A DNA stretch of 19,403 nt from a virus (lineage: Duplodnaviria > Heunggongvirae > Uroviricota > Caudoviricetes). Below the pieces are notes generated by a model, which did not search any database, had not been told where the DNA came from, and saw nothing but the letters and a program-made list of their open reading frames with translations. Made by a program: the position numbers and the translations under genes. The stretch spans positions 1 through 19,403 of the IMG/VR virus record IMGVR_UViG_2778261570_000017; one strand, 5' to 3'. Below are positions 1 to 17,277 of the stretch, one piece after another; the first letter of the stretch is position 1, and every line of letters begins with the position of its first letter.

Positions 1-2
1 TT

Positions 3-65
3 ACAGGTATGGAACGCATTAAGGCAGTACGTGAAATTATTCGTGAACGGGGAAAAGCAAAATGA
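3..65 (+). CDS. 3' end of an upstream CDS (reading frame 3, ...TGMERIKAVREIIRERGKAK*), partial; possibly the primase partner of the downstream Rep
   Basis: Open frame runs in from the window edge and stops at TGA 63-65, overlapping the ATG at 62 (ATGA coupling) of the next gene. Identity not determinable from 21 residues. Confidence 0.4.
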   Translation, partial: TGMERIKAVREIIRERGKAK

Positions 66-1468
66 AACTGGCACCGAACGTAAAACTGTTACCGAAAGAT
101 AAACACACTGAGGCGGTTATTTTTGCGGGTGATAATGCTCACTCCTTTGCAGAACATTACATGATTGCACAGGCCAAAAAAGCAGGCGATCCCATCCCTC
201 CGGTTTACCTGGGCCGTTATCAGTTAAGCGAACTGGACAATTTACAGATTGTTGATGAAGGACGATACAGAGCAAAGGTCATACGCGCCGGAAACCTGGA
301 CGATATGCAGATGCTGACCATTGCCACCAAACTGGCGATCGCAGGTGTCCAGGAAGCACGGTTACTTTCAGAGAATTTCGAACTGCTGGAGGACTGGAGC
401 GAGCAACTACCGCGGCTTAAAGAAACCTGGGAACGCGGGGAAAGTCTGGTCATGAATGGTGGAAAGCGAAAAATCACACTTCCCATCTCATGGGGTTCTG
501 AGGGATTCGACGCGCAGCAAAGCTACGTAATTAAGGGGCTTATTCCGGCTGAGTCATTATGCAGCACCTACGGGGCCAGCGGTTCTTATAAATCGTTCCT
601 GGCTATTTCCTGGTCGTGCCATGTTGTCACAGGTATGGCATGGGGAGGCCGCAGGGTAAGTAAGGGCGCTGTTATCTATATCGCTGGCGAAGGCAGTATG
701 GGCGTAAAACGCCGCGTTAAGGCGTGGGAGATAACCCATGACAAGGTGGTTACGGATTTGTGCATCGTTAACGCGCCTGTTTTCCCTGCATCGCCTGACT
801 ATGTGGAGCAGGTTATCAGGACTGCCGGACTTGTTAAGAGCAGAACGGGCGAAAATGTGCGGCTGATTGTGATCGACACGCTGGCCCGTTGCTTTGGTGG
901 GAATGATGAAAATGATTCCCGTGATATGGGCGCATTTATCCAGGGGTGTGACGCGATAAAGCAGGCCACAGGGGCCACGGTACTGGTGGTTCACCATTCC
1001 GGCAAGGATGAAACAAAGGGGGCGCGAGGTTCCAGCGCATTCCGCGCTGCACTGGATGCAGAGTACCGAATCAGCCGGGAAAATTCAGACGTTACAGCAC
1101 TGGTGGCGGCGTGTACGAAGATGAAGGACGCAGAGGAGCCAAAAGAGAGTGCATACGATCTTAAAAGCGTGGAGGTGTTCACCGATACAGATGGCGAAGA
1201 GATTGTGTCCATGGTGGTGATTGACGTTCCCCGCGCCCCTGCTGAACTGGAGCGCATAGAGGAGGCCGGGAACAAGACGGAAAATCACACGGCTTTATGG
1301 GGTTGTATCCGGTCGCGTATACAGCATGGTGATAAATGTACGATCCCGCTGCTACGTGATGACATGAAAAAGCTGGGATATGACACAAAACACCTTAAAC
1401 GATGGTTAGCCAAACTGGAAAAAGACGGCGTGATTTGCGTCGATGGGGATGATGTTCACCCACTGTAA
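62..1468 (+). CDS. Replication ATPase/helicase, RecA-fold (RepA/AAA_25-like)
   Basis: 468-aa ORF with Walker A-like YGASGSYKS, Walker B-like hydrophobic stretch ending in Asp (RLIVIDTLARCF) and VLVVHHSGKD. Coupled to the upstream ORF and followed immediately by an iteron array. Confidence 0.6.
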   Translation: MKLAPNVKLLPKDKHTEAVIFAGDNAHSFAEHYMIAQAKKAGDPIPPVYLGRYQLSELDNLQIVDEGRYRAKVIRAGNLDDMQMLTIATKLAIAGVQEARLLSENFELLEDWSEQLPRLKETWERGESLVMNGGKRKITLPISWGSEGFDAQQSYVIKGLIPAESLCSTYGASGSYKSFLAISWSCHVVTGMAWGGRRVSKGAVIYIAGEGSMGVKRRVKAWEITHDKVVTDLCIVNAPVFPASPDYVEQVIRTAGLVKSRTGENVRLIVIDTLARCFGGNDENDSRDMGAFIQGCDAIKQATGATVLVVHHSGKDETKGARGSSAFRAALDAEYRISRENSDVTALVAACTKMKDAEEPKESAYDLKSVEVFTDTDGEEIVSMVVIDVPRAPAELERIEEAGNKTENHTALWGCIRSRIQHGDKCTIPLLRDDMKKLGYDTKHLKRWLAKLEKDGVICVDGDDVHPL

Positions 1469-1670
1469 AAAGTGGGCGTTAAAAGTGGGAATAGTGGGTA
1501 ATTTAACTGGAATTTAACAAAATCGCCCACTTTCCCACGTGTATACATCCCAAAAAGTGGGCACTAAAAAAATACTTATGAAACAGTACGATATAAAACC
1601 ACAAAATCCCTGGTGGGACGAAGTGGGAAACCATGAAAAGTGGGCAGAAAAAGTGGGCACAGGTGGGCGC
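1468..1670. repeat. Iteron array, (A)AGTGGG(C/A) repeated about 10 times; candidate replication origin
   Basis: AGTGGG at 1471, 1484, 1493, 1556, 1622, 1639, 1652; GGTGGG at 1612 and 1662; inverted copy CCCACT at 1526-1531. Lies directly 3' of the Rep gene. Confidence 0.6.
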
Positions 1671-1922
1671 ATGACAAGAAAAACCAGAGATAAGACAGCA
1701 CCAAAATATAAAGCGTTAGACATGACAGAGCACGCCTTAAAGGTGGCAATCAGAACGATAGACCGCCACGCCGGAGAAGGATACGCGAAAGCACATCCCG
1801 AACTGATAAGCGCATTCATGACCACGGCGGCGGCAAATTTTGCCACGCTGACAGAGCGGGAGATTGCCGAAGCGGAACAGGTGACAACCATCAACGTTAA
1901 AACCGGAGAACAGACAGCATGA
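1671..1922 (+). CDS. Small hypothetical protein (about 84 aa)
   Basis: The ORF track starts at 1539, but the N-terminal 44 codons are translated iteron repeats. The ATG at 1671 follows GGTGGGCGC. Stop TGA 1920-1922 overlaps the ATG of the next gene at 1919 (ATGA). Confidence 0.45.
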   Translation: MTRKTRDKTAPKYKALDMTEHALKVAIRTIDRHAGEGYAKAHPELISAFMTTAAANFATLTEREIAEAEQVTTINVKTGEQTA

Positions 1923-2341
1923 CAGCACAGATAGCGGCTTACGGGCGGCTGGTGGCTGACCCGCAGTTAAAGACCACCAGCAAGGGGACACAAATGGCGA
2001 TGGCGAGTATGGCGGTTCCCCTGCCGTGCAGCCAGGCAGATGACGGAACGGCGACGATGTGGTTATCCGTCCTGGCGTTTGGCAGACAGGCCGACGCACT
2101 GGCCAGACACCACAAAGGCGAACTGGTGAGCGTGGCGGGTAACATGCAGGTAAGCCAGTGGACAGGCCAGAACGGCGAAACGCGGCAGGGCTGGCAGGTT
2201 ATCGCAGACAGCGTAATCAGTGCGCGAACGGCGCGACCGGGCGGCAAAAAAGGTCAACAGGGCCAGGCTACTGACGCGCTGAACAGGGCAAAACAACAGG
2301 CGGGAAATGATGATCCGTACGGGGATAACATACCGTTTTAA
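1919..2341 (+). CDS. ssb: Single-stranded DNA-binding protein (SSB)
   Basis: 140 aa, OB-fold-like N-terminal region, Gly/Gln-rich linker and acidic C-terminal tail ...DDPYGDNIPF, matching the canonical SSB C-terminus D-D-D-I-P-F. Confidence 0.8.
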   Translation: MTAQIAAYGRLVADPQLKTTSKGTQMAMASMAVPLPCSQADDGTATMWLSVLAFGRQADALARHHKGELVSVAGNMQVSQWTGQNGETRQGWQVIADSVISARTARPGGKKGQQGQATDALNRAKQQAGNDDPYGDNIPF

Positions 2342-2358
2342 GAAACGAGTGACAGAAG

Positions 2359-2380
2359 CCGGGATTTTTCCCGGTTTTTT
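2359..2380 (+). terminator. Rho-independent terminator-like hairpin after ssb
   Basis: CCGGGA (2359-2364) / TCCCGG (2369-2374), 4-nt loop, followed by TTTTTT (2375-2380). Confidence 0.6.
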
Positions 2381-2455
2381 ACGGGTCCTCCCGGTGGAGT
2401 GGCCTTGCCACGGGGCGGGAGCGTCGCGGAAAACGGCTGATTTTTGAATTTTCAT
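2378..2455 (+). other. cos-like site copy 1 (cosQ-like TTTACGGGTCCT, 35-nt spacer, cosN-like 12-mer GGGCGGGAGCGT at 2413-2424)
   Basis: Recalled lambda cos junction is TTTACGGGTCCTTTCCGGTGATCCGACAGGTTACG|GGGCGGCGACCT|CGCGGG. Here the first 12 nt match exactly, the 35-nt distance to the GC-rich 12-mer is the same, and the ACG / CGCGG flanks match. Repeated at 4898-4978. Confidence 0.6.
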
Positions 2456-2609
2456 GGGACACCACCACATCAATTAACATGTTGAAAAATAAAATAAAAA
2501 TTGATTTTCACCTGTCCAATTTTGCTTTTTGTGGGACATCTGACCAGTTTGCAATTAATTGAAATATATAAATAAATCAGTTTTTCACCTGCCTGGTGGA
2601 GTTGCCTGT
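2456..2609. repeat. Two degenerate tandem units of about 77 bp, AT-rich, each with GGGACA..., a CAAT..ATTG-type palindrome and TTTTCACCTG(T/C)C
   Basis: Unit A 2456-2532, unit B 2533-2609. GGGACAcc at 2456 and GGGACAtc at 2533. TTTTCACCTGTCC 2505-2517 and TTTTCACCTGCC 2582-2593. Palindromes CAATTAACATGTTG 2471-2484 and CAATTAATTG 2552-2561. Confidence 0.5.
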
Positions 2610-2641
2610 ATCAAAACGTGTTCAGATGGCGGGATATTTAT

Positions 2642-2664
2642 GCCGGATTTTTTCCGGCTTTTTT
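2642..2664 (+). terminator. Rho-independent terminator-like hairpin
   Basis: GCCGGA (2642-2647) / TCCGGC (2653-2658), followed by TTTTTT (2659-2664). Nearly the same hairpin as at 2359-2380. Confidence 0.55.
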
Positions 2665-2765
2665 GCGTCTGAATCTGATTAATCTATTTTTATGATAGAA
2701 ATATGTTTATCTACCACTTTTATCGATCAATAATGATGCCCGTTAATCAAAACGGAGGCGGATTT

Positions 2766-2960
2766 ATGCCAGAGAACAACACCAGAAAGCCGGGTAAAAG
2801 TGCCACTGTGCACATAGACACCGGAACGATGGAGAAGATCGAACGCTATCAGCAGTTCATCAAAGAGAATCACCCGGGTATGCCAGTACCCACGAAAGGA
2901 CAAATCACACGCAGCGCGGTTGAATACTGGTACAAGGCAACGTTAGGAGCCTGGCTATGA
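2766..2960 (+). CDS. Small protein (about 64 aa), possible ribbon-helix-helix DNA-binding fold
   Basis: GGAGG at 2754-2758 lies 7 nt before the ATG at 2766; the ORF-track start at 2703 has no RBS. Predicted strand-helix-helix pattern (ATVHID / TMEKIERYQQFIKEN / GQITRSAVEYWYKA). Stop TGA 2958-2960 overlaps the ATG at 2957 of the capsid gene. Confidence 0.45.
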   Translation: MPENNTRKPGKSATVHIDTGTMEKIERYQQFIKENHPGMPVPTKGQITRSAVEYWYKATLGAWL

Positions 2961-4873
2961 AAACATGGTTTTCCATTAAGGCGGCGGATGTGCGTGGAAC
3001 GGTGGAAATATCCATCTATGAAGAAATTGGCGGCTTCGGTATTACCGCGAAGCAGTTCTCGGAAGATCTGAAAGCCCTTGGCGATGTTTCACATATCGAC
3101 CTACGGATCCATTCGCCTGGCGGTGACGTGTTTGAAGGCATCGCCATCTATAACCTGCTACGGAATCATCCGGCAGACATTACGGTTTATATCGATGGCG
3201 TGGCGGCTTCAATGGCTTCGGTCGTCGCAATGGCTGGCGATCGCGTTGTTATGCCGGAGAACGCCATGATGATGATCCATAAGCCGTGGGGGATCTCTGG
3301 CGGAAATGCTGGCGATATGCGTGATTATGCTGATTTGCTGGATAAAGTGGAAACCGTGTTAATCCCTGCTTATGCCAGAAAAACAGGCAAATCAGCACAG
3401 GAAATTGCCGCCATGCTGGAAGATGAAACCTGGATGGACGGGAAAGAATGCCTTAAGCACGGTTTTGCTGATGAATTGTTGCCATCTGTCAGAGCAATGG
3501 CGCGAATTGAATCGAAACGCACAGGAGATTTTTTACATATGCCGGAAACCATTAAGGGAATGATTACCCCGCCGAAATCACAGGCAAAAAACACCATTAC
3601 AGGCGACCAGGAGCGCATTAACGGCATTAAAGAAATTTTTAGCGTGTTCGGCAACCAGTACGACGGGATCAAAATGTCGTGCCTTGAAGATGCATCCTGT
3701 ACGCTGGAAATGGCCCGGGAACGTCTGCTTAACGAAATGGGTAAAAACCACACACCAACAAATAAAAATATCCCGTCTCATATTTATGCCGGAAACGGGA
3801 ACATAACAGGCGATGCGATTCGCCAGGGCCTTTATTCCCGTCTTGGGTATGAGCGTCCTGAGCGTGGCAATCCTTACGCGATGATGAGTCTTTTTGAAAT
3901 GGCCCAGGCGTCACTGGTTGATCGTGGTATCAGTGTTGGCGGTTTTTTAAATCGCTCGCAGGTCGTTAATGCAGCTTTTACACACAGCAGCAGTGATTTT
4001 TCTCATATTCTGGCTGGCGGTGCTGAAAAATCAGTGCTGAAAGGCTGGCAGGACAGCGGCGAAACGTTCCAGAAGTGGACGCGTAGCGGATCGCTTTCAA
4101 ACTTTCACGAGGCAAAACGCGTTGGCCTGAATGGTTTTTCAAAACTGGATAAAGTGCCGGAAGGCGCGGAATATAAATACATTACTACCAGTGACAAGGG
4201 CGTACCTATTGCGCTGGCCACATACGGGAATATTTTTTCTGTTACCCGCCAGGCCATTATTAACGATGACCTGACCCAGTTAACTACAATCCCCATGGCG
4301 ATGGGGCGTGCAGCCGCCAGAACAGTAGGTAATCTGGTGTATCTCCTGTTAACCGGCAATGGCAAATTCACGGATGGTAAGGCGCTATTCCATGCCGATC
4401 ATAAAAATCTTATTGCGAAGGATATGGACATGGAGGGGCTTAACGAAGCCCGTAAGCTGATGCGCCTCCAGGAGGACGCTAACGGTGATTCGCTGAATAT
4501 TACCCCCGCATTTGTCCTGGTCCCCGCCGCGCTGGAGTCTGCCGCACATCGCGCCATTCTGTCATCGTCATCACTCTTTCAGGTTGATGGTGAGGGCACT
4601 ATCAATCAGAACCCCGGCATCATTAACGTGGTGAAAGATATGGCTGAGGTTATTGTTGAGCCACGTCTTGATAAGAACAATAACAAGGAGTGGTATGTAG
4701 CCGCAGCGAAAGGGATGGACACGATAGAGGTCGCTTATCTTGATGGTATTGATACGCCATATCTTGAGGAGCAGGAGGGCTTTACTGTTGATGGTGTCGC
4801 CTGGAAGGTGCGCATAGATGCAGGTGTTGCGGCCCTCGATTATCGTGGACTACTGAAATCGAGTGGAGCATGA
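2957..4873 (+). CDS. Prohead protease (ClpP/S14-like) fused to HK97-fold major capsid protein, copy 1
   Basis: 638 aa. N-terminal about 190 aa carries protease motifs (HSPGGDVFEG, DGVAASMAS, MMIHKPWG); the C-terminal region is colinear and homologous along its full length with the second copy at 8636-10696. AGGAG RBS at 2944-2948. Confidence 0.85.
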   Translation: MKTWFSIKAADVRGTVEISIYEEIGGFGITAKQFSEDLKALGDVSHIDLRIHSPGGDVFEGIAIYNLLRNHPADITVYIDGVAASMASVVAMAGDRVVMPENAMMMIHKPWGISGGNAGDMRDYADLLDKVETVLIPAYARKTGKSAQEIAAMLEDETWMDGKECLKHGFADELLPSVRAMARIESKRTGDFLHMPETIKGMITPPKSQAKNTITGDQERINGIKEIFSVFGNQYDGIKMSCLEDASCTLEMARERLLNEMGKNHTPTNKNIPSHIYAGNGNITGDAIRQGLYSRLGYERPERGNPYAMMSLFEMAQASLVDRGISVGGFLNRSQVVNAAFTHSSSDFSHILAGGAEKSVLKGWQDSGETFQKWTRSGSLSNFHEAKRVGLNGFSKLDKVPEGAEYKYITTSDKGVPIALATYGNIFSVTRQAIINDDLTQLTTIPMAMGRAAARTVGNLVYLLLTGNGKFTDGKALFHADHKNLIAKDMDMEGLNEARKLMRLQEDANGDSLNITPAFVLVPAALESAAHRAILSSSSLFQVDGEGTINQNPGIINVVKDMAEVIVEPRLDKNNNKEWYVAAAKGMDTIEVAYLDGIDTPYLEEQEGFTVDGVAWKVRIDAGVAALDYRGLLKSSGA

Positions 4874-4880
4874 CAACAAG

Positions 4881-4903
4881 GGCGGCGATAGCCGCCTTTT
4901 TTT
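4881..4903 (+). terminator. Rho-independent terminator-like hairpin after capsid copy 1
   Basis: GGCGGC (4881-4886), loop GATA, GCCGCC (4891-4896), then TTTTTTT (4897-4903). Confidence 0.6.
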
Positions 4904-4978
4904 ACGGGTCCTCCCGGTGGAGTGGCCTTGCCACGGGGCGGGAGCGGCGCGGAAAAAGGCTAGTTTTTGCATTTTCAT
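4898..4978 (+). other. cos-like site copy 2 (cosQ-like TTTACGGGTCCT at 4901-4912, cosN-like GGGCGGGAGCGG at 4936-4947)
   Basis: Direct repeat of 2378-2455 with about 5 mismatches. Sits where lambda cos sits, roughly 190 bp upstream of the Nu1-like TerS start. Confidence 0.65.
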
Positions 4979-5132
4979 TCATCATCATCATCTTTTCAAT
5001 GCATTGAATTTAAACGAATTTTATTTTTAGTATGTTAATTTTGCGTGTTTTTTGGTCAACATATAACGCACTTTATAACGCTTTTTGAGAAGGTGTTCGC
5101 AAGATGCATGTTTAAAACATTCTGGAGCGGGT
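4979..5132. promoter_or_regulatory. cosB-like AT-rich region between cosN-like site and TerS (candidate TerS/IHF binding sites)
   Basis: Perfect palindrome CAATGCATTG at 4997-5006, about 50 bp after the cosN-like 12-mer (the same family of palindrome sits 47 and 128 bp after the cos copy 1 12-mer). Also tandem ATAACGC and near-palindrome ATGTTTAAAACAT. Confidence 0.4.
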
Positions 5133-5618
5133 ATGGATCGAGAACTGAAAAATCTGATGCTGAACATTAACCAACTGGCGGCGATAGCGGGAATATGTCG
5201 TCAGACTGCGGCGGCAAGGCTGAAAAACATCCAGCCAGCCGGAGGACATGACAAGCTGAAACTCTATCGGGTGACTGACATTCTGACCTGTTTTCTTGAT
5301 CTTCCCGTTCCGGCATCACTGGAAGAAATGGAGCCACATGACCGTAAGGCCTGGTATCAGTCTGAACGTGAGCGCCTCAAGTTCGAACAGGAAACGGCGC
5401 AACTCATACCCGCCGATGATGTGCGAAAAGAGATGGCTATATGGGCGGAAATCGTAAGCGAGGAACTGGCAAAACTCCCCAGTATTCTGGCACGTGATGC
5501 GGGGCTTAAACCGATGGCAGTAAACAGAGTGCAGTCAATTATTGACGATTTGTGTAATCAGATTATCAGCCGGATGGTAAAAAATGACGCAGTGAATGAG
5601 GATGTAAAACAGGCATGA
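5133..5618 (+). CDS. Terminase small subunit (lambda Nu1-like)
   Basis: GGAG 5 nt upstream of the ATG at 5133. N-terminal LNINQLAAIAGICRQTAAARL resembles the Nu1 winged-HTH region (recalled lambda Nu1 MEVNKKQLADIFGASIRTIQNW). Position immediately downstream of cos. Confidence 0.7.
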   Translation: MDRELKNLMLNINQLAAIAGICRQTAAARLKNIQPAGGHDKLKLYRVTDILTCFLDLPVPASLEEMEPHDRKAWYQSERERLKFEQETAQLIPADDVRKEMAIWAEIVSEELAKLPSILARDAGLKPMAVNRVQSIIDDLCNQIISRMVKNDAVNEDVKQA

Positions 5619-5864
5619 TAATGACTGGCGCCGTGATCCCCCGTGCTACCGGAATCAGACTACCAGAAGGCAAACAGAAGACCACGCAGTCGGGCAGCGT
5701 CATCGTGTTAATGCATGGCGGCGTATTCTGCTTTTAATTAATATTGCTACCTTTTTTCTTTTTTTATCGCTTAGGCAGGTACTAAATCTTGGACTATGTG
5801 AATGGGGTTACAACTAAATAGTACCTTATAATCATTTAGTTACCTTTTATTTACTTCTTCCTGG

Positions 5865-6977
5865 ATGGAAGGCCCCGCTGCGGCATATCAGACGCTGTCC
5901 CAGCTGGTCTATAAGTTGCTGACCGCCGAACAGGAATACGAGTCGACCGGAAGCGAAGAAACGCTCAAGACAGTCATCAACACCGACTGGGGATTACCTT
6001 ATCTTCCCCGGGCCAGCATGGAGCAACGAAAAAGCGAACTGCTTGAGCAGCGGGCAGAGCCTGTTCCTCCCCGAAGTGTGCCGGATGGCGTTAATTTCCT
6101 TGCGGCGACAGTGGATGTGCAGGCGGGACGTCATCGCCGTTTTGTGGTTCAGGTAACGGGCTATGGCAGTCGTGGCGAACGCTGGATAGTTGATCGTTAC
6201 AACATCACGCAGTCGCTGCGTTGTGACAATAACGGAGAAAGCCTGCGTATTGACCCTGCCGGTTATCCGGAGGACTGGGATGTTCTGCTGACGGATGTTT
6301 TTCATAAAGGCTGGCCGCTGGCTTCTGATCCTTCTCAACAAATGCGACTGATGGCAATGGCGGTGGACTCCGGCGGTGAAGACGGGGTCACTGATAATGC
6401 CTATAAATTCTGGCGTCGTTGCCGTCGTGATGGCCTTGGTAAACGTATTTACCTGTTTAAGGGCGACAGTATCCGTCGCGCAAAACTGATAACCCGTACA
6501 TTTCCGGATAACACCGGACGAACGGGGCGACGGGCGCAGGCTTCGGGTGATGTTCCACTCTGGCTCCTTCAGACGGATGCCCTGAAAGACCGGGTGAATA
6601 ACGCGTTATGGCGTGACTCGCCAGGTCCCGGCTATGTGCATTTTCCTGACTGGCTGGGGAGCTGGTTTTACGACGAACTGACGTATGAAGAGCGGAGCAG
6701 TGACGGAAAGTGGAGTAAGCCGGGTCGCGGTGCCAACGAAGCCTTTGACCTGATGGTGTATGCCGAGGCGCTGGTTATTCTGCATGGGTACGAGAAAATT
6801 CAGTGGCCGGATGCGCCGGAATGGGCATGCAGGGAAACCTGGCTGGAATACGTCAGTGACAACGCTGAGCAGGCTGTTCTGCCGGAACCAGTCTCTCTGC
6901 CTGCCAGAAAAAAGAAACGAAAAAAAGTGACGCCCGATGAGGATAACCCCTGGGTGACTTCCGGAGGATGGTTATGA
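5865..6977 (+). CDS. Terminase large subunit (lambda gpA-like), C-terminal nuclease domain only; N-terminally truncated, possibly a pseudogene
   Basis: 370 aa, colinear with roughly the C-terminal half of lambda gpA as recalled (ATVDVQAGRHRRFVVQVTGYGSRGERWIVDR vs AGIDSQLDRYEMRVWGWGPGEESWLIDR; ANEAFDLMVYAEAL vs RNEALDCFVYALAA). No Walker A segment, and only 246 bp lie between TerS and this ORF. No clear RBS. Confidence 0.75.
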   Translation: MEGPAAAYQTLSQLVYKLLTAEQEYESTGSEETLKTVINTDWGLPYLPRASMEQRKSELLEQRAEPVPPRSVPDGVNFLAATVDVQAGRHRRFVVQVTGYGSRGERWIVDRYNITQSLRCDNNGESLRIDPAGYPEDWDVLLTDVFHKGWPLASDPSQQMRLMAMAVDSGGEDGVTDNAYKFWRRCRRDGLGKRIYLFKGDSIRRAKLITRTFPDNTGRTGRRAQASGDVPLWLLQTDALKDRVNNALWRDSPGPGYVHFPDWLGSWFYDELTYEERSSDGKWSKPGRGANEAFDLMVYAEALVILHGYEKIQWPDAPEWACRETWLEYVSDNAEQAVLPEPVSLPARKKKRKKVTPDEDNPWVTSGGWL

Positions 6978-7186
6978 ATCAGAATGATATTGAAGCCATG
7001 ATCCAGCGTTATATCGATGCGGAAATGGCAGTGCTGGACGGAAAATCCGTCACCTTTAATGGTCAGCAAATGACCATGGAAAATCTGTCCGAGATCCGCC
7101 GGGGACGTCAGGAGTGGGAGCGGCGTCTTGCTGCCCTGACTGCGCGGCGACGGGGGAACCCGGGATATAAACTGGTGAGGTTCTGA
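6974..7186 (+). CDS. Head-tail joining protein (lambda gpW-like)
   Basis: About 70 aa. ATG 6974 overlaps the TerL stop (ATGA); stop overlaps the portal ATG at 7186 (TGATG). C-terminus ...RRRGNPGYKLVRF resembles lambda W ...RRRGPAGFYV. Confidence 0.6.
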   Translation: MNQNDIEAMIQRYIDAEMAVLDGKSVTFNGQQMTMENLSEIRRGRQEWERRLAALTARRRGNPGYKLVRF

Positions 7187-8691
7187 TGGCAATTCTGGAT
7201 GATGTGATTGGTGTTTTTTCTCCAGGCTGGAAAGCGGCGAGGTTGCGCTCAAGAGCGTTAATCCGCGCTTATGAGGCTGTGAAACCCACACGCACACACA
7301 AAGCCCGACGGGAAAACCGTTCTGCCGACCAGCTCAGTAAGTACGGGGCGGTTTCCCTGCGGGAGCAGGCCCGTTTTCTGGATATCAATCATGACCTCGT
7401 AATCGGCGTTTTCGACAAGCTTGAGGAGCGGGTGATTGGTGCAAAGGGGATCATTGTTGAACCCCAGCCATTACTGAAAAACGGTGGTGTGGCTACAGAG
7501 CTGGCAATGATTATCCGTCGTTTGTGGGCGGAATGGTCTGTCAGTCCGGATGTGACCGGGCAGCATACGCGCCCCATGCTCGAACGTCTGCTGTTGCGTA
7601 CCTGGTTACGTGATGGAGAAGTGTTTGCCCAGATGGTCAGAGGCGCAGGTGCCGGGCTGGCACGGACTGCCGGTGTGCCTTTCTGGCTTGAGGCAATGGA
7701 GCCTGATTTTGTGCCCATGCTCAGTGATGAGTCTGCGGGAATGAATCAGGGAGTTTTTCTGGATAAATGGGGCAGGCCGAAAAAATACCTGGTTTATAAA
7801 AATTATCCGGTTCCCGGGCGACAGAGCGAAACCAAAGAGATCGCCGCTGAAAATATGGTGCATCTGAAGTTTACCCGCCGGCTGCACCAGACGCGTGGTA
7901 CATCCATGTTGTCGGGTGTGCTGATACGGATCAGTGCACTTAAGGAGTACGAGGATTCTGAGTTGGTTGCAGCGCGTGTTGCTGCGGCTCTGGGGTTATA
8001 TATTCGTAAAGGAGATGGACAGGATTATGAGGAACCTGTGACAAATAAAGATAATGATCGGGAACTGCATATCACTCCCGGCATTATTTATGACGATCTG
8101 CGTAAGGGGGAAGATATTGGCATGGTCAAATCTGATCGGCCTAACCCTAATCTGGAAACTTTTCGTAATGGTCAGTTGCGGGCTATGGCGGCGGGCACTC
8201 GTCTGAGCTTTTCCAGTGCAGCACGTAACTATAACGGTACCTACAGTTCCCAGCGACAGGAGCTGGTTGAGTCCACCGATGGCTATCTGATCCTGCAGGA
8301 CTGTTTTATTGGTGCTGTAACCCGTCCGGTGTACCGGGCATGGCTGAATATGGTGATTGCCGCGGGGTTGCTGAAAATTCCGTCGGATGTGGATATGAAA
8401 ACGTTATATAACGCAACATATTCTGGCCCTGTGATGCCGTGGATCGACCCAGTCAAGGAGGCTGAAGCCTGGAAAATTCAGATCCGGGGTGGTGCGGCGA
8501 CAGAATCAGACTGGGTGCGCGCCAGTGGTCGTAATCCGGATGACGTCAAACGTCGGCGCAAAGCTGAGATTGATGAAAACCGCAGGCTGGAACTGGTATT
8601 TGATACCGATCCGGCAAGTGATAAAGGAGGTGGTAATGCTGAAACAGAACGCGTGGTTCCGCGGCGAACCGAAGGCCAGCCTGAAGAATAA
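7186..8691 (+). CDS. Portal protein
   Basis: 501 aa, in the canonical position between W and the protease-capsid gene and translationally coupled to W. Confidence 0.7.
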   Translation: MAILDDVIGVFSPGWKAARLRSRALIRAYEAVKPTRTHKARRENRSADQLSKYGAVSLREQARFLDINHDLVIGVFDKLEERVIGAKGIIVEPQPLLKNGGVATELAMIIRRLWAEWSVSPDVTGQHTRPMLERLLLRTWLRDGEVFAQMVRGAGAGLARTAGVPFWLEAMEPDFVPMLSDESAGMNQGVFLDKWGRPKKYLVYKNYPVPGRQSETKEIAAENMVHLKFTRRLHQTRGTSMLSGVLIRISALKEYEDSELVAARVAAALGLYIRKGDGQDYEEPVTNKDNDRELHITPGIIYDDLRKGEDIGMVKSDRPNPNLETFRNGQLRAMAAGTRLSFSSAARNYNGTYSSQRQELVESTDGYLILQDCFIGAVTRPVYRAWLNMVIAAGLLKIPSDVDMKTLYNATYSGPVMPWIDPVKEAEAWKIQIRGGAATESDWVRASGRNPDDVKRRRKAEIDENRRLELVFDTDPASDKGGGNAETERVVPRRTEGQPEE

Positions 8692-10696
8692 TTCCTGGTT
8701 CAGAATGAAGGCGGGTCATAAAAGTGATGCGGATATTTATATCTATGACGAGATTGGTTTTTGGGGTGTTACGGCGAAACAGTTTGTCAGTGATCTGAAT
8801 GCGCTGGGCAATATTACCCACATTAATCTCCATATCAATTCACCGGGTGGCGATGTCTTTGAAGGCATCGCCATTTTTAATGCGCTGAAAAATCACGGAG
8901 CGTCCATCACTGTTTATGTGGATGGCGTTGCCGCATCCATGGCATCGGTCATTGCAATGGTGGGGGATCCCGTCATCATGCCGGAAAATGCATTCATGAT
9001 GATACATAAACCATGGGGAGTGAGTGGTGGCGATGCGGATGATATGCGCGATTATGCTGACCTGCTTGATAAAGTTGAGGCGGTCCTGTTGCCTGCTTAT
9101 GCGCAAAAAACCGGAAAAACGACAGATGAAATTGCTGCCATGCTGAAAGATGAAACCTGGATGTCCGGAGCTGAATGTCTGGCACACGGATTTGCTGACC
9201 AGGTGACACCGAAAGTTAAGGCAATGGCATGCATTCAGTCAAAACGAACAGAGGAATTTAAAAAAATGCCAGAATCCATCCGAAATATGATTATTCCGCC
9301 ACGCAACAGTGCAACGCGTGAACCTGAAAACAAAAATACTGCATCTCAGACACAGGAGCAGACTACGGCTCAGGTTGTCACAACCGCGACCATTGCGAAT
9401 GCGTCTTCCGCAGATGAAAGCAGTATCCGTGCACAGGTGCTGGCTGAGCAAAAAGCACGCGTGAGTGGTATTAATGACCTGTTTGGTATGTTTGGCGGGC
9501 GTTATCAGACATTGCAGGCCAGTTGCCTTTCCGATCCGGAGTGCTCGCTTGAGCAGGCCCGTGAGAAATTACTTAACGAAATGGGTAAGGAATTTTCACC
9601 ATCAAATAAAAACACCCCGTCCCATATTTATGCCGGCAACGGTAATTTTGTGGGAGACGGGATCCGACAGGCGCTGATGGCGCGCGCCGGATTTGCTGAG
9701 CGTGAGCAGGATAACGTCTATAACGGGATGACCCTGCGTGAATATGCCCGAATGTCACTGACAGAGCGTGGTATTGGGGTTTCCGGGTATAACCCGATGC
9801 AGATGGTGGGGGCAGCGTTCACCCACAGCACGTCTGACTTCGGTAATATTCTGTTAGATGTTGCGAACAAAGCCATTCTGCAGGGCTGGGAAGAAGCGCC
9901 TGAAACCTACGAACAGTGGACCCGAAAAGGTCAGCTGTCTGATTTTAAAATCGCTCATCGTGTGGGTATGGGGGGCTTCAGTTCTCTGCGTCAGGTGCGT
10001 GAGGGGGCGGAATATAAGTACGTCACCACCGGAGATAAACAGGCCACGATTGCACTGGCGACCTATGGCGAACTGTTCAGCATCACCCGCCAGGCCATTA
10101 TCAACGATGATCTGAATATGCTGACCGATGTTCCGATGAAACTGGGGCGTGCGGCGAAATCCACGATTGCCGATCTGGTTTATGCCATTCTGACATCTAA
10201 CCCGAAAATCTCCACGGATAATGTGAGCCTGTTCGATAAAGCGAAACATGCAAACGTACTGGAGAGCGCAGCAATGGACGTGGCATCGCTGGATAAAGCC
10301 CGCCAGTTGATGCGCGTTCAGAAAGAAGGTGAGCGTCATCTGAATATTCGCCCTGCGTTCGTACTGGTACCGACGGCGATGGAGTCTGTTGCTAACCAGG
10401 TTATTCGCTCCTCAAGTGTCAAGGGGGCTGACATTAACGCCGGTATTATTAACCCGGTGAAAGATTTTGCGACCGTTATTGCAGAGCCGCGCCTTGATGA
10501 TAACAGCCAGACCACCTTTTATCTGGCTGCGGCGAAAGGTACGGATACCATCGAAGTGGCTTATCTCAATGGGGTGGATACGCCATATATTGATCAGATG
10601 GAGGGCTTCAGCGTGGACGGCGTGACAACGAAAGTGCGTATTGACGCCGGTGTTGCACCAGTTGATCACCGCGGTCTGGTGAAATGTACGGCGTAA
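8636..10696 (+). CDS. Prohead protease (ClpP/S14-like) fused to HK97-fold major capsid protein, copy 2 (canonical head position)
   Basis: Strong RBS AAGGAGGTGG at 8624-8633 before the ATG at 8636; the ORF-track start at 8489 lies inside the portal gene. Same architecture as copy 1, plus a T/Q/A-rich low-complexity insertion of about 45 aa. Confidence 0.85.
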   Translation: MLKQNAWFRGEPKASLKNNSWFRMKAGHKSDADIYIYDEIGFWGVTAKQFVSDLNALGNITHINLHINSPGGDVFEGIAIFNALKNHGASITVYVDGVAASMASVIAMVGDPVIMPENAFMMIHKPWGVSGGDADDMRDYADLLDKVEAVLLPAYAQKTGKTTDEIAAMLKDETWMSGAECLAHGFADQVTPKVKAMACIQSKRTEEFKKMPESIRNMIIPPRNSATREPENKNTASQTQEQTTAQVVTTATIANASSADESSIRAQVLAEQKARVSGINDLFGMFGGRYQTLQASCLSDPECSLEQAREKLLNEMGKEFSPSNKNTPSHIYAGNGNFVGDGIRQALMARAGFAEREQDNVYNGMTLREYARMSLTERGIGVSGYNPMQMVGAAFTHSTSDFGNILLDVANKAILQGWEEAPETYEQWTRKGQLSDFKIAHRVGMGGFSSLRQVREGAEYKYVTTGDKQATIALATYGELFSITRQAIINDDLNMLTDVPMKLGRAAKSTIADLVYAILTSNPKISTDNVSLFDKAKHANVLESAAMDVASLDKARQLMRVQKEGERHLNIRPAFVLVPTAMESVANQVIRSSSVKGADINAGIINPVKDFATVIAEPRLDDNSQTTFYLAAAKGTDTIEVAYLNGVDTPYIDQMEGFSVDGVTTKVRIDAGVAPVDHRGLVKCTA

Positions 10697-10719
10697 ACGT
10701 CGCAGACAACAACGCTGAT

Positions 10720-10772
10720 GGCCCGTAAGGGCTTTTTTTGTACCTGAAATCAGCCCCGTTCAGGGGGCTTTG
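10720..10772 (+). terminator. Two consecutive hairpins after capsid copy 2 (attenuator/terminator-like)
   Basis: GCCC-GTAA-GGGC followed by TTTTTTT (10720-10739), then AGCCCC / GGGGCT hairpin (10752-10769). Confidence 0.45.
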
Positions 10773-10783
10773 CGGAGGCAGTT

Positions 10784-11107
10784 ATGGCAAAGAATTTTGT
10801 GGAAGACGGGAAAACGGTGGAGATTGTCGCTGGCGCAAATATCAGTAGCGGAGAGCTGGTACAGGTGGGCGATATTTTTGCTGTGGCACTGACCGATATT
10901 GCAAAAGGCGAAATTGGGGACGGCATGACTGAAGGTGTATTTATGCTGCCGAAACTGAAAACGGATGATATGAAAACCGGTAAGAAGGTTTATCTGAAGT
11001 CCGGAAAAGTTCAGCTGACTAACAGCGGCTCTGATCCGCTGGTCGGGGTTGTCTGGGCAGATGCCGGAACCAGTGCAGAAGAAGTGCCGGTAAAACTCAA
11101 TGTCTGA
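10784..11107 (+). CDS. Small head protein, DUF2190-like (possible decoration or head-completion protein)
   Basis: 107 aa, GGAGG at 10774-10778, located directly after the major capsid gene. Family assignment is from recollection. Confidence 0.45.
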   Translation: MAKNFVEDGKTVEIVAGANISSGELVQVGDIFAVALTDIAKGEIGDGMTEGVFMLPKLKTDDMKTGKKVYLKSGKVQLTNSGSDPLVGVVWADAGTSAEEVPVKLNV

Positions 11108-11375
11108 TCCCTTTTCCCGGCTGGCAGCGCGTATGGATGCTATCACGGTCAGAAAGATGGGAAAGACAGCCTCGATTAATGATGTCGATATGACCGTGAT
11201 CCCGGGAGAAACACTGGCAGAGCTGAATGCTCTGTCCGGACCTGCGGTCTCTCTGGTTGTGTTTTCTTCGGGATACCGCCCACGGCGCGGGGATCGCGTT
11301 GTTTATGACGGACAACAATGGACGGTCACACGGCATGAACGCTTTAACGGTAAGCCAATGATCTTTATTGAGTAA
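11100..11375 (+). CDS. Head-tail connector / head completion protein (lambda gpFII-like)
   Basis: 91 aa. ATG overlaps the preceding stop. C-terminal RRGDRVVYDGQQWTVTRHE resembles lambda FII RRGDTLTIGEENFWVDRVS. Confidence 0.5.
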   Translation: MSDPFSRLAARMDAITVRKMGKTASINDVDMTVIPGETLAELNALSGPAVSLVVFSSGYRPRRGDRVVYDGQQWTVTRHERFNGKPMIFIE

Positions 11376-11386
11376 AGAGGTGTGGG

Positions 11387-11965
11387 ATGAAGGGGCTTGA
11401 GAATGCCATCCGCAATCTGAACAGCCTTGATACCCGTATGGTGCCACAGGCCAGCGCATGGGCGATAAACCGTGTGGCACAGAAAGCGGTCTCGGTTGCC
11501 ACCCGGCAGGTTGCCGGGAATACCGTTGCGGGAGATAACCAGGTGAAAGGGATCCCCCTGAAACTGGTACGTCAGCGTGTCCGGGTGTTTAAAGCCAGTC
11601 CGTCAGGAAAAATGACGGCCAGGATCCGCGTTAACCGGGGCAATCTGCCCGCCATTAAGCTGGGAACAGCCCGGGTCAGACTGGCCCGGCGTGGTGGAAA
11701 ACTGCAGTACCGTGGCAGTGTGCTGAAGGTGGGTAAATATCTTTTCCGGGATGCGTTTATTCAGCAACTGGCGAATGGTCGCTGGCATGTGATGCGGCGT
11801 ATTGATGGCAAAAATCGTTACCCCATTGATGTGGTGAAAATCCCGCTGTCCGGACCGCTGACACAGGCATTTGAAGATGCCCGCGACCGCATCATTGCTG
11901 CGGAAATGCCGAAACAGCTGGGGTATGCACTGAAACAACAACTGAGGTTATGGCTGACCCGATGA
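11387..11965 (+). CDS. Tail completion protein (lambda gpZ-like)
   Basis: 192 aa, the same length as lambda Z; position between FII-like and U; RBS AGAGGTG upstream. Confidence 0.6.
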   Translation: MKGLENAIRNLNSLDTRMVPQASAWAINRVAQKAVSVATRQVAGNTVAGDNQVKGIPLKLVRQRVRVFKASPSGKMTARIRVNRGNLPAIKLGTARVRLARRGGKLQYRGSVLKVGKYLFRDAFIQQLANGRWHVMRRIDGKNRYPIDVVKIPLSGPLTQAFEDARDRIIAAEMPKQLGYALKQQLRLWLTR

Positions 11966-12363
11966 ACCGACATACACAAATCCGCCAGGCCGTACTGGCA
12001 CGCCTTCGGGAACAGTGTGGAGACAGCGCCACGTTTTTTGACGGGCTTCCGGCATTTATTGATGCGCAGGAACTGCCTGCCGTGGCGGTGTGGCTGAGTG
12101 ATGCTCAGTACACCGGAAAAATGACGGATGAAGATGACTGGCAGGCTGTTCTGCATATTGCCGTCTTCATCCGGGCACAGGCACCGGATTCAGAGCTGGA
12201 TATGTGGATGGAGAGCACCATTTTTCCTGCCCTGAATGATATACCGGCACTTTCCGGACTCATCGACACCCTGATCCCACTCGGTTTTAACTATCAACGT
12301 GATAATGAGATGGCCACCTGGGCGATGGCGGAAATCACGTACCAGATCACGTACACGAATTAA
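11962..12363 (+). CDS. Tail terminator protein (lambda gpU-like)
   Basis: Strong similarity to recalled lambda U (TFFDGLPAFIDAQELPAVAVWLSDAQYTGKMTDEDDWQAVLHIAVF vs TFFDGRPAVFDEADFPAVAVYLTGAEYTGEELDSDTWQAELHIEVF). ATG 11962 overlaps the Z stop (ATGA); the alternative ATG at 11950 is less likely. Confidence 0.85.
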   Translation: MNRHTQIRQAVLARLREQCGDSATFFDGLPAFIDAQELPAVAVWLSDAQYTGKMTDEDDWQAVLHIAVFIRAQAPDSELDMWMESTIFPALNDIPALSGLIDTLIPLGFNYQRDNEMATWAMAEITYQITYTN

Positions 12364-12373
12364 GGAGGTGGCA

Positions 12374-13117
12374 ATGACCACACCAAATCCACTGGCAAAG
12401 ACGAAAGGTGCGGGGACGACGTTCTGGATGTATACCGGCAACGGCGATGCGTTTGCGAACCCTTTGTCGGACACTGACTGGCTGCGTCTTGCGATGGTGA
12501 AGGATCTGCAGCCTGGCGAAATGACCGCTGATGCAGAAGATGACACTTATCTCGATGATGAAGATGCAGACTGGAAAACGACAACCCAGGGGCAGAAATC
12601 CGTCGGTGATACTTCGGCGACGCTGGCCTGGCGTCCGGGTGACAGCGGGCAGAAAAAACTGGTTCAGTTGTTCGACTCCGGTGAAGTCTGCGCGTTTCGT
12701 ATCAAATATCCCAACGGCACTGTTGATGTTTTCCGCGGCTGGCTGAGCTCACTGGGTAAAACCATTGCCTCAAAAGACGTGATGACCCGCACTGTGAAAA
12801 TCAGCGGTGTGGGGCGTCCGTATCTGGCAGAGGAAGGCACTGAAACCGTGAGCGTTACCGGGCTGACGGTGGCACCGGCATCTGCCAGTGTAAAAGTGGG
12901 AGCAACCACCACGCTGACCTTTACAGTAAAACCTGACGGAGCCAGTGACAAAGCGATCAGTGTGCATTCGACAGATCCACAGACTGCCACGGTGACCCTG
13001 AACGGGCTTGTGGCCACGGTGAAAGGCGTGAAGCAGGGCAGTGTCAGCATTGTGGGCATGACTTCTGACGGCGATTTTGTGGCCGTGGCTGCGGTGGCTG
13101 TCAGCGCCGCAGGTTAA
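12374..13117 (+). CDS. Major tail protein (lambda gpV-like) with C-terminal Ig-like domain
   Basis: RBS AAGGAGGTG before the ATG at 12374. N-terminus MTTPNPLAKTKGAGTTFWMYTGNGDAFANPLSD matches lambda V [33 protein letters not shown]. The ORF-track start at 12299 lies inside U. Confidence 0.9.
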   Translation: MTTPNPLAKTKGAGTTFWMYTGNGDAFANPLSDTDWLRLAMVKDLQPGEMTADAEDDTYLDDEDADWKTTTQGQKSVGDTSATLAWRPGDSGQKKLVQLFDSGEVCAFRIKYPNGTVDVFRGWLSSLGKTIASKDVMTRTVKISGVGRPYLAEEGTETVSVTGLTVAPASASVKVGATTTLTFTVKPDGASDKAISVHSTDPQTATVTLNGLVATVKGVKQGSVSIVGMTSDGDFVAVAAVAVSAAG

Positions 13118-13137
13118 CAGGACGATACTCATCATTT

Positions 13138-13161
13138 GCCCCGGTTATCCGGGGCTTTTTT
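13138..13161 (+). terminator. Strong hairpin plus T-run between V and G (terminator/attenuator)
   Basis: GCCCCGG (13138-13144), loop TTAT, CCGGGGC (13149-13155), then TTTTTT (13156-13161). Confidence 0.65.
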
Positions 13162-13177
13162 GCAAGTGGAGAACATG

Positions 13178-13564
13178 ATGTTTCTGAAACAGGGCACGTT
13201 TAATTATGAAAAGCAGTCCGTGGTGCTCAGTGAGCTGTCCGGGCTGCAGAGAATTGAATATCTGGCGTTTGTTCAGCAGCGAACGGCAAAGTTTGATGCC
13301 GGGGAGGGAGAACTGCCGGAGGCTGAACGACAGATTGCTTTTCTGCGGATGGGGATGGATATCAATGCCTGGCTGGTTTCCCGCTCACTGTGGAATGCGG
13401 ATCAGTCTAAGGATGTAGAGACGCTTTGCGCATCCGTTATTACAACATGGTCGTATGATGCCCTGGGTGCGGGGGCGGAGATGGTTCTGTCGCTGAGCGG
13501 TATGGGGGCCATTGATAATGCCGGGGATGATGAGCATGAGGTGCTGACGCCGGAAAAGTCCTGA
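13178..13564 (+). CDS. Tail assembly chaperone (lambda gpG-like)
   Basis: MFLKQGTFNYEKQSVVLSELSGLQRIEYLAF resembles lambda G MFLKTESFEHNGVTVTLSELSALQRIEHLAL. GGAG 6 nt before the ATG at 13178. The ORF-track start at 13136 runs through the terminator hairpin. Confidence 0.85.
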   Translation: MFLKQGTFNYEKQSVVLSELSGLQRIEYLAFVQQRTAKFDAGEGELPEAERQIAFLRMGMDINAWLVSRSLWNADQSKDVETLCASVITTWSYDALGAGAEMVLSLSGMGAIDNAGDDEHEVLTPEKS

Positions 13565-13902
13565 CGCGGGAAATGCAGTTTGTCATGCGGCTTGCCCGGG
13601 AGTTCCGGCGGGCAGACTGGCGGCGGATGCTGTCGGAAATGTCAGCCACTGAGCTTGGTGAGTGGGGCGATTATTTCCGGATGCAGAGCTTCAGTGATGT
13701 GTGGATGGATGCGCAGTTTGCCTCGCTGAAGGCATTGATCGTGAGAATGGTGTCCGGCAGCAGTGATGCTGCGGTGGCTGATTTCAGCCTTTTACCGGAA
13801 GAGAACGGGATACCGGAGCGAACGGACGAAGAACTGATGCATCTTGGGGAAGGTATTTCCGGAGGTGTGCGTTATGGACCAGATAGCCAACCTGGTCATT
13901 GA
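13540..13902 (+). CDS. gpT-like segment, expressed as the G-T fusion by -1 frameshift (-1 frame relative to G)
   Basis: Open frame in the -1 frame relative to G overlapping the G 3' end, typical of the conserved G/G-T tail chaperone pair. Confidence 0.6.
   Translation, partial: GADAGKVLTREMQFVMRLAREFRRADWRRMLSEMSATELGEWGDYFRMQSFSDVWMDAQFASLKALIVRMVSGSSDAAVADFSLLPEENGIPERTDEELMHLGEGISGGVRYGPDSQPGH
13552..13558 (+). promoter_or_regulatory. Candidate -1 programmed frameshift site GGAAAAG producing the G-T fusion
   Basis: The -1 frame is open only from 13540 and G stops at 13562-13564, so the shift must occur in 13540-13561. The only slippery candidate there is G-GAA-AAG (lambda uses G-GGA-AAG). 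Confidence 0.5.
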
Positions 13903-16900: not shown

Positions 16901-16939
16901 TCCCGTGATGGTGGTCAGTTAAGCGGAGCGTATCGGTAA
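13874..16939 (+). CDS. Tail tape measure protein (lambda gpH-like)
   Basis: About 1021 aa, coiled-coil-rich. N-terminus MDQIANLVIDLGIDAAEF vs lambda H ...VGDLVVDLSLDAARF; C-terminus INNDGTNGQIGPAALKVVYD...RDGG matches lambda H. GGAGGTG RBS at 13861-13867. Confidence 0.9.
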   Translation: MDQIANLVIDLGIDAAEFKNEIPRIKNLLNGAASDAERSSARMQRFMERQTQAARQTTQAASSAATAASVHAQTVEKNAQVHERMAREVEKTRQRMEALSQKMHEEQAQAMALAEAQDKAAAAFYRQIDSVKQASAGLQELQRIQQQIRQARNSGGIGQQDYLALISDVTAKTRVLTQAEEEATRQKVAFIRQLKEQATRQNLSSSELLRAKAAQLGVSSAAEVYIRKMEQAGKATHSLGLKSAAARQEIGVLIGELARGNLGALRGSGITLANRAGWIDTLMSPKGMMLGGVIGGIAAAVYGLGKAWYDGQKEGEEFNRQLSLTGHYAGVTAGQLWTLSRAISGNGITQHAAAGALAQVVGSGAFRGNDIGMVARAAAQMERSVGQSVSDTISQFKRLKDDPVNAAKALDNELHFLTATQLEQIRVLGEQGRSSDAARIAMSALAEETGRRTADIDNNLNALGSTLQTLSDWWKQFWDAAMNIGREDSLDAQIATLQEKVSRAKRLPWTASSSQVEYDQQRLNELQEKKRQKDLQDAKEQAERNYQEQQKRRNAENAALNRMNETEAARHQREIARINAMQYADQAVRDAAIQRENERYEKALASGKKKTRETRNDEATRLLLQYSQQQAQVEGQIAAARQSAGIATERMTEAHKQLLALQQRISDLDGKKLTADEKSVLARKDELIQALTLLDVKQQELQKQTALNELKKKTIQLTSQLAEEERAQRQQHDLDIATVGMGDQQRQRYQVQLSLRQKYQQQLEQLRRDSEQKGTYNTDDYRKAEQALTESLNRQLNENRRYWQQLEVVQGNWKNGVLRAFQDFTVDADNTAGTAEQVFSSAFSNMGNGLATFVTTGKLNFKSFTSSVLSDMAKILAQATMMKSIKGIGSVLGFDLSSLSLNANGGIYQSADLSRYSGTVVNRPTFFAFAKGAGVMGEAGPEAILPLRRGADGKLGVVADIGGSGMVMFAPQYNIEINNDGTNGQIGPAALKVVYDLGKKAAADFMQQQSRDGGQLSGAYR

Positions 16940-17268: not shown

Positions 17269-17277
17269 GAGGCTCTG

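Follow-up and report, generated by a model that had tools for sequence, protein, structure and literature searches.

The replication origins of Escherichia coli phage-inducible chromosomal islands (PICIs) lie downstream of pri/rep and consist of two sets of iterons that flank an AT-rich region, and in one of these islands, EcCICFT073, a rep-ori segment maintains a plasmid, with deletion of either rep or ori impairing maintenance (PMC6092414). For the Staphylococcus aureus pathogenicity islands (SaPIs), PMC9371898 describes origins in SaPI1, SaPIbov1, and SaPI5 (Ubeda et al., cited therein) with 6−12 penta- or hexanucleotide iterons directly 3′ of rep and an AT-rich center, and a Rep that is itself the helicase and whose C-terminal winged helix reads the iterons with a specificity that varies between islands. 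Here, we describe the corresponding locus in a 19,403-nucleotide stretch of Caudoviricetes DNA (IMG/VR record IMGVR_UViG_2778261570_000017, positions 1 to 19,403; hereafter, the window), in which the gene for a 468-residue Rep protein is followed by a 202-bp gap filled with short repeats. Because the repeats cluster beyond chance, stand in a PICI gene context, are syntenic with the tested EcCICFT073 origin, and co-vary with Rep, we consider it very probable that window positions 1469−1670 are the replication origin (ori) of a Gram-negative PICI.

A preliminary description of the window had noted a dense AAGTGGG array of about 10 copies in about 200 bp, mostly direct with at least one inverted, starting at the rep stop codon. 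A recount bears out each of these points. The gap between rep and the next gene holds 11 copies of (A)AGTGGG(C/A), nine direct and two inverted (Table 1), the first of which begins 2 nt past the stop codon (1466−1468). Nine of the 13 AGTGGG hexamers found on both strands of the 19.4 kb window fall within 1459−1657, and 12 of its 40 GTGGG/CCCAC pentamers fall within 1459−1667 (216 bp; binomial p ∼1.5e-14). The highest pentamer count per 216 bp reached in 500 shuffles of the window is 6. A twelfth AGTGGG, inverted, at 1459−1464 (minus strand), is embedded in the last rep codons, CAC CCA CTG. We did not count it in the array because it does not co-vary with the iterons: the equivalent site stays ..CCCACTGTAA or ..CCGCTGTAA in relatives with GTGAGG or GTGGGGA iterons. 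This copy is probably a coincidence.

The copies are arranged as a left cluster, a central element, and a right cluster, with AT-rich DNA on either side of the central element. The GC content of the flanks is 0.51, as compared with the values given in Table 1 for the two AT-rich stretches. The positions of the left cluster are kept in a 17-sequence origin alignment. The outer arms of the central element, GCCCACTTT and AAAGTGGGC, form a perfect 9-bp inverted repeat spaced 20 nt apart, and its (C)TGTATA(T/C)A core hardly varies among lineages with different iterons. The sole hairpin in the array (1619−1606, minus strand) is itself iteron sequence, and no known RNA family matches anywhere in the window at gathering thresholds. 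Neither DnaA boxes nor IHF sites are present inside 1460−1670 at ≤1 mismatch, which fits a self-contained initiator. The locus thus has what is expected of an iteron origin, namely a clustered motif, an adjacent AT-rich region, and an initiator with a predicted DNA-binding domain that matches the iterons.

Table 1. Coordinates of the putative origin, its repeats, and the neighboring genes in the window
Feature	Position	Strand	Remarks
rep (468 aa)	62−1468	+	N-terminal domain, ∼130 aa; AAA_25 ATPase, 146−317; C-terminal winged helix (predicted), ∼407−468
rep part encoding the predicted C-terminal winged helix	1247−1465	+	predicted recognition helix H3, residues 445−454
Left iteron cluster	1470−1499	+	3 direct copies (AAGTGGGC, AAGTGGGA, TAGTGGGT); start-to-start 13 and 9 nt
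Direct copy	1470−1477	+	AAGTGGGC
Direct copy	1483−1490	+	AAGTGGGA
Direct copy	1492−1499	+	TAGTGGGT
First AT-rich spacer	1500−1523		GC 0.17; short direct repeat AATTTAAC, twice
Central element	1524−1562		inverted iterons, GTGTATACAT core, direct iteron 1555−1562
Inverted copy	1525−1532	−	AAGTGGGC
Inverted copy	1533−1540	−	ACGTGGGA
Direct copy	1555−1562	+	AAGTGGGC
Main AT-rich region	1563−1611		49 bp, GC 0.27; presumed DNA-unwinding region
Right iteron cluster	1611−1668	+	5 direct copies (TGGTGGGA, AAGTGGGA, AAGTGGGC, AAGTGGGC, AGGTGGGC)
Direct copy	1611−1618	+	TGGTGGGA
Direct copy	1621−1628	+	AAGTGGGA
Direct copy	1638−1645	+	AAGTGGGC
Direct copy	1651−1658	+	AAGTGGGC
Direct copy	1661−1668	+	AGGTGGGC
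83-aa protein gene, phrog_1231	1671−1922	+	mechanical open reading frame call extends back to 1539
Single-stranded DNA-binding protein (SSB) gene	1919−2341	+	Pfam SSB, E = 9e-16; so annotated in relatives; in the island replication zone
Capsid-protease fusion gene (ClpP-protease/capsid)	2957−4873		satellite
DUF1441 TerS-like gene	5085−5618

The evidence that ties the repeats to Rep comes from related loci. A survey of one genome per species yielded 80 loci that encode Rep relatives in Enterobacterales, to which further Rep variants from E. coli and Salmonella were added by exact protein look-up. An array downstream of the rep stop codon is found in 82 of 91 Rep-relative loci, in Escherichia, Salmonella, Xenorhabdus, Pantoea, Pectobacterium, Morganella, Kosakonia, and other genera, and its architecture is shared: three direct repeats are followed, past a spacer, by an inverted copy, then by a (C)TGTATATA(C) core with a direct copy after it, and a central stretch separates this copy from four to five further direct repeats. 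The repeat itself differs by lineage, being AAGTGGGC/A, AAGTGGGGA, AAGTGAGGA, AAGTGGGGGA, GTGGGGGC, AAGTGCGGCA, or AAGTGCGCG. Across the 82 loci, which are phylogenetically related, with far fewer independent switches, the residue at Rep position 444 pairs without exception with the fourth base of GTG-N-G: Ser with C (9 loci), Asn with A (30), His with G (15), Lys with G (27), and Gly with C (1). Residues 445−446 go with the bases that come next, L-K accompanying GGG(C/A) and F-R, F-S, or F-T accompanying GGGG or GAGG. In the Rep of the window, K443-H444 precede the predicted recognition helix H3 (nt 1388−1423), and K443 is invariant. Predictions that were fixed before the loci were retrieved proved correct for all three proteins concerned, with GTGAGG for P0038 and P0091 (K-N) and GTGGGG for P0097 (K-H). 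The last 50 residues of Rep differ at just 3 positions between loci L092 and L093, N/H444 among them, and all iterons change from GTGAGGA to GTGGGGA.

Other modules of the island do not follow this pattern. Within E. coli, islands of different iteron classes can be as much as 98−99% identical in DUF4222, in the N-terminal domain of Rep, in the ATPase, and in the 83-aa protein, so that none of these modules predicts the iteron class; their distribution indicates that they are shuffled by recombination. Another island protein as the reader of the repeats was considered and set aside, since none of these four partitions with the class. The co-variation is strong indirect evidence that the C-terminal domain of Rep binds the repeats.

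Two further observations were made in the related loci. Those without a detectable array (L025, L079, L080, L065, L072, and L054) mostly have a truncated or disrupted rep, with open reading frames (ORFs) of 127−349 aa, or belong to very AT-rich genomes (Gilliamella), a pattern suggestive of a joint decay of rep and ori in dead islands. In addition, many of the related origins carry, in their central stretch, a CATTACTGG-like element that often follows GCCGCGC or CCCTCG (L077, ∼5185−5215; L094, ∼3005−3030; L003; L086, ∼10185−10205); the tested origin of EcCICFT073, whose initiator is of a different type, is among them. This element may be a host-factor or priming site. The origin of the window does not contain it, and the same central stretch is merely AT-rich there.

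The preliminary description had called the rep product an ATPase, and the family searches agree: the motor domain matches Pfam AAA_25 (E = 2e-42) and has a RecA fold of the RepA type. Among solved structures, the RSF1010 RepA helicase (PDB 1G8Y) is the nearest both by sequence (E = 1.7e-4) and by fold (probability 1.0, 24% identity), the nearest folds are those of RSF1010 RepA, T7 gp4, KaiC, and Rad51, and relatives in RefSeq are annotated as "helicase RepA family protein". Rep does not carry a superfamily 3 (SF3) motor of the D5/P4 primase C-terminal type and has no TIGR01613 match. An upstream primase, which the same description had named as a possible iteron-binding protein, was not seen; the gene upstream of rep is DUF4222, and the Pfam and NCBIfam searches detected no primase domain in Rep. 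The P-loop (window 572−595, residues 171−178) reads GASGSYKS and is invariant in all 16 aligned Rep variants, with a Tyr where Walker A usually has Gly before Lys.

When modeled alone with AlphaFold, the C-terminal domain has a predicted local distance difference test score (pLDDT) of 86 and the order H-H-H-beta-beta; the same region scores 72−83 within the full-length model. Its top fold matches are all winged-helix DNA-binding domains (DtxR/IdeR-DNA complexes, LexA, and the MCM8 winged helix), at template modeling scores of ∼0.6 and E ≥ 0.03, weak E-values being usual for a domain of 70 residues. At the other end of the protein, the N-terminal ∼130 residues (window 62−460; L086 8242−8640) are 46% identical to the otherwise unrelated P4-type Pri-Rep of EcCICFT073. 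This domain is confidently predicted to be compact and alpha/beta (pLDDT 80−90), no Pfam or NCBIfam family matches it, and the full-length model (pLDDT 61) is too poor to assign it. It may be the part of Rep that contacts DUF4222 or host replication proteins.

We located EcCICFT073 in the CFT073 genome, where DUF4222 and rep are followed by a 288-bp gap, an 85-aa gene, and SSB, and where the gap holds iterons of its own, GGTAGAYA, around an AT-rich stretch. The gene order is that of the window island throughout (int, AlpA-type helix-turn-helix (HTH) gene, Icd-like gene, DUF4222, rep, iterons, 83−85-aa gene, SSB, capsid), and the N-terminal 130 aa of Rep and the small downstream protein (84% identity) are common to both. 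The initiator of EcCICFT073, however, is a 584-aa P4-family primase/SF3 helicase (TIGR01613), whereas that of the window is a RecA-fold AAA_25 protein of the RepA type, and GGTAGAYA is replaced by AAGTGGG together with a different Rep C-terminal domain. The ATPase, the C-terminal domain, and the iterons therefore differ together between conserved flanks, as expected of one functional unit, and it looks as if motor, C-terminal domain, and iterons had been exchanged as a single cassette. The origin of EcCICFT073 has been tested experimentally, while that of the window is known from its sequence; the suggestion in the preliminary description that the array is a probable origin nevertheless gains computational support, as the array occupies the slot of the tested origin, has a conserved architecture, and consists of repeats that co-vary with Rep.

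The likeness to the SaPIs lies in the iterons 3′ of rep, the AT-rich center, and an initiator that is a helicase with a C-terminal winged helix, which is predicted in our case. SaPI Reps differ in being AAA+ (SF3/MCM-like, 3′−5′) helicases of Gram-positive hosts without sequence relation to the window Rep. The SaPI iterons are also opposed across the AT-rich region, whereas in the window the two outer clusters run in the same direction and divergence is confined to the central pair. RSF1010 RepA, to which the ATPase is closest among solved structures, has no origin-binding domain, and the iterons of RSF1010 are read by a separate initiator, RepC; the window Rep, in contrast, has a predicted winged helix fused to its motor. 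The alpha protein of satellite P4 is an initiator with a primase, an SF3 helicase, and a C-terminal origin-binding domain for short repeated motifs, so that the combination of helicase and C-terminal origin-binding domain (predicted in the window Rep) is shared, but P4 ori and crr are not directly after the alpha gene, and the window island has PICI rather than P4 gene content (no sid/delta/psu). With a RecA-fold motor in place of AAA+ SF3, polarity and loading geometry may differ from those of the SaPI Reps, P4 alpha, and the Pri-Rep of EcCICFT073.

From these comparisons, we infer Rep binding, a melting site, helicase loading, and Rep-dependent replication, and we propose the following scheme, modeled on the SaPI type, in which the initiator is itself the helicase. 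Rep would act as a self-loading initiator-helicase that recognizes the (A)AGTGGG(C/A) iterons by its C-terminal winged helix; H444, in the N-terminal cap position of the recognition helix, would read the fourth base of GTG-G-G, and residues 445−446 (L-K) would go with the C/A that follows GTGGG. Rep bound to the flanking direct clusters and to the divergent pair at the TGTATAC core would assemble one or more RecA-fold (RepA/T7 gp4-like) ATPase rings, and the DNA would open at the adjoining AT-rich stretches, 1500−1523 and 1563−1611. After opening, the island SSB and the host replisome would take over. Priming is probably by host DnaG, given that no primase domain was detected in either Rep or its upstream neighbor. 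The rep-p83-ssb transcript would read through the origin, with the last iteron serving as the ribosome-binding site of the gene at 1671.

Several considerations weigh against the interpretation of 1469−1670 as an origin. The tested PICI origin, that of EcCICFT073, uses a P4-type SF3 primase-helicase and thus a different motor, and a second island of PMC6092414, that of IHE3034, also has a P4-type primase gene. In the searchable literature, no experimental study turned up for this element or for any other PICI origin of the RepA type. The fold matches of the C-terminal domain are generic and their E-values weak, and the full-length Rep model is poor. The kinship of the loci reduces the co-variation to perhaps 6−8 independent changes, by our estimate from the switches within E. 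coli and those in several genera. Finally, the co-variation pairs the C-terminal domain of Rep with the repeats and does not distinguish initiation from regulation. This last point bears on the possibility that the repeats are chiefly a transcriptional operator, through which Rep or another island protein autoregulates rep or the read-through into p83-ssb-capsid and fires no replication. The array does lie inside a co-directional operon with no plus-strand terminator found between rep and the 83-aa gene, the Shine-Dalgarno sequence of that gene shares bases with the last iteron, such that bound Rep could affect expression, and the conserved TGTATATAC core is −10-like in flavor; iteron-binding plasmid initiators, moreover, commonly autoregulate. 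We nevertheless regard a purely regulatory role as unlikely: no sigma-70-type promoter matches in 1300−1700, 11 sites spread over 200 bp around AT-rich stretches are origin-like and not operator-like, and the homologous slot of EcCICFT073 is a functional origin. Regulation and initiation are also compatible, and an operator would be an added role more than a replacement. A packaging (cos/pac) or partition-type site, bound by the winged helix of Rep or by a terminase-like protein, is another way to account for the repeats, since a satellite depends on a packaging signal and a TerS-like protein, DUF1441, is encoded in the island. We think this very improbable, in that a separate cos-like stretch at ∼2376−2615, of the upstream-of-terS type, is the likelier packaging site, and the iterons show co-variation with Rep but none with the late/packaging genes, which are shuffled independently.

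The repeats could also, in principle, be a by-product of coding sequence. A GTG-started frame is open from 1539 through the 83-aa gene, and the same extension is open in the near-identical islands L001 and L002, so that ORF 1539−1922 might be real and the repeats might reflect a repetitive N-terminal peptide (KVG..., EVG..., KWAEKVG...). We give this explanation almost no credence. Of the repeats, half precede 1539 and two stand on the opposite strand; in six related loci, a stop closes the frame 3−51 nt before the ATG. In seven related loci, RefSeq and independent gene calls chose the ATG that corresponds to 1671, in each case giving 83 aa at 200−203 nt after the rep stop codon, and the PHROG profile phrog_1231 has 83 positions and is matched from 1 to 82. 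The repeats, furthermore, vary in step with Rep but not with the 83-aa protein, and L091 and L092 keep the array although the 83-aa gene is absent. The EcCICFT073 homologue reaches its 84% identity from residue 14 on and is unrelated in the sequence upstream. The GTG start of the long frame falls inside the TGTATAC core, and the last iteron (AGGTGG, 1661−1666) is plausible as the Shine-Dalgarno sequence of the gene at 1671, whose ATG follows after 4 nt. The earlier suspicion that the repeats inflate this ORF and that the gene starts at 1671 is thus well founded on annotations, profile length, and closed frames in relatives; judged from these, the ORF is inflated and 1671 is the start. For annotation, a 202-bp noncoding stretch has been turned by mechanical ORF calling into a false N-terminal extension of 44 residues.

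The kind of element is established, as the window follows the PICI/SaPI pattern of an origin after rep, with iterons, an AT-rich region, and a winged-helix reader, and no new category is called for. What sets the window locus apart, as far as the sequence comparisons go, is the RepA-type (RecA-fold) motor in place of the SF3 motor of the characterized PICI/SaPI initiators; to this, the residue-to-base code and the invariant core add some modest interest of their own. Our literature search, which did not cover Figure 2a of PMC6092414, returned no paper on AAA_25 with iterons, on DUF4222 with PICIs, or on a RepA-type cassette, and the supplements of PMC6092414 contain no AGTGGG-type iteron. We tentatively put forward a broader idea, toward which we lean slightly less than away: RepA-type helicases (RecA-fold, SF4-like) fused to a C-terminal winged helix would be a class of satellite initiators of their own, self-loading and widespread in Enterobacterales, with an origin specificity set by a near one-residue-one-base code at the start of the recognition helix (H/K444 for G, N for A, S/G for C), a cassette of motor, C-terminal domain, and iterons that is exchanged, and the TGTATATAC core as the common loading/melting site. 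If this is true, cassette exchange would let co-resident islands replicate without cross-talk. Apart from this idea, the comparison shows that one genomic slot of PICIs is occupied by at least two helicase motors that are unrelated to each other. It also identifies the "helicase RepA family protein" of about a third of complete E. coli genomes as a probable satellite initiator. The natural Rep variants with their matching iterons offer a ready-made, testable specificity code for a predicted winged-helix origin-binding domain, in which an H444N swap should switch GTGGG to GTGAG, with possible use in the design of orthogonal replicons and in predicting which satellites coexist.

The surroundings of the array support the assignment of the island to the Gram-negative PICIs. 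The window begins in DUF4222 and contains the right part of an island of ∼10 kb. In E. coli RM8082 (L001), the same segment is 98.5% identical and belongs to a ∼9.9 kb island at tRNA-Pro; in strain SCU-125 (L002), the ∼9.9 kb island is inside the terL of a lambdoid prophage. Island genes in the relatives are int, an AlpA-type HTH gene, an Icd-like gene, DUF4222, the RepA helicase, the 83-aa gene, SSB, the capsid-protease fusion, and DUF1441. An integrase and an AlpA-type regulator at the left end, with genes in one direction, are thus present in near-identical islands (int and HTH in L001; L002; Phage_integrase and Phage_AlpA in L083), a replicase module followed by the origin is represented by rep and the array, where the helicase half alone is recognized and no primase domain, and the capsid gene, the TerS homologue, the size, and the lack of tail or lysis genes belonging to the island agree as well. 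These genes correspond to the core set listed for Gram-negative PICIs (Fillol-Salom 2018; de Sousa 2023), and the island is, by its genes, a Gram-negative PICI satellite.

The island sits inside, and is co-oriented with, the terL of a lambdoid prophage (window 5620−6977, junction ∼5855−5870). Directly after it, ORF 5865−6977 is the 3′ fragment of terL, which encodes its C-terminal GpA_nuclease part; in L002 (2844−3836; 13992−15113), the N-terminal part of terL is upstream of the island integrase, and the two reading frames join at ..SFWM/EGPAAA... Placement in prophage late genes is that of the published helper-embedded PICIs (HE-PICIs), whose sites include A:Terminase_1 (PMC10111431), and this embedding in a co-oriented terL is what the window island shares with them. 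That paper does not analyze an origin sequence or a RepA-type initiator, and "RepA" and "AAA_25" have 0 occurrences in it. Two genes for fusions of a ClpP-like prohead protease with a major capsid protein are present in the window, the satellite copy of Table 1 and one at 8489−10696 in the surrounding prophage.

With regard to distribution, 1774 of 5426 complete E. coli genomes match segment 1−2400 (rep, array, 83-aa gene, and SSB) at some level, and the exact origin type is present in 24 of the 5426, always beside a "helicase RepA family protein". Plasmid records gave no full-length match to the segment; partial matches, including relatives of rep and SSB (helicase RepA family/AAA family ATPase and SSB; H32−H36), have ≤72% coverage at 77−96% identity. 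Among phage records, the window origin is unmatched, and a 3 kb segment matches phages at the cos-like stretch only. This stretch, 2376−2615, is noncoding, lies between SSB and the capsid genes, and is 76−89% identical to the first ∼200 nt of cos-phage records (cdtI 1−204, Tritos 1−204, and related E. coli phages), the part that immediately precedes terS in these phages. Terminator-like hairpins flank the stretch at 2353−2375 (identified by eye) and 2642−2658, and by its similarity to these phages, it is probably a helper-type cos site carried for packaging.

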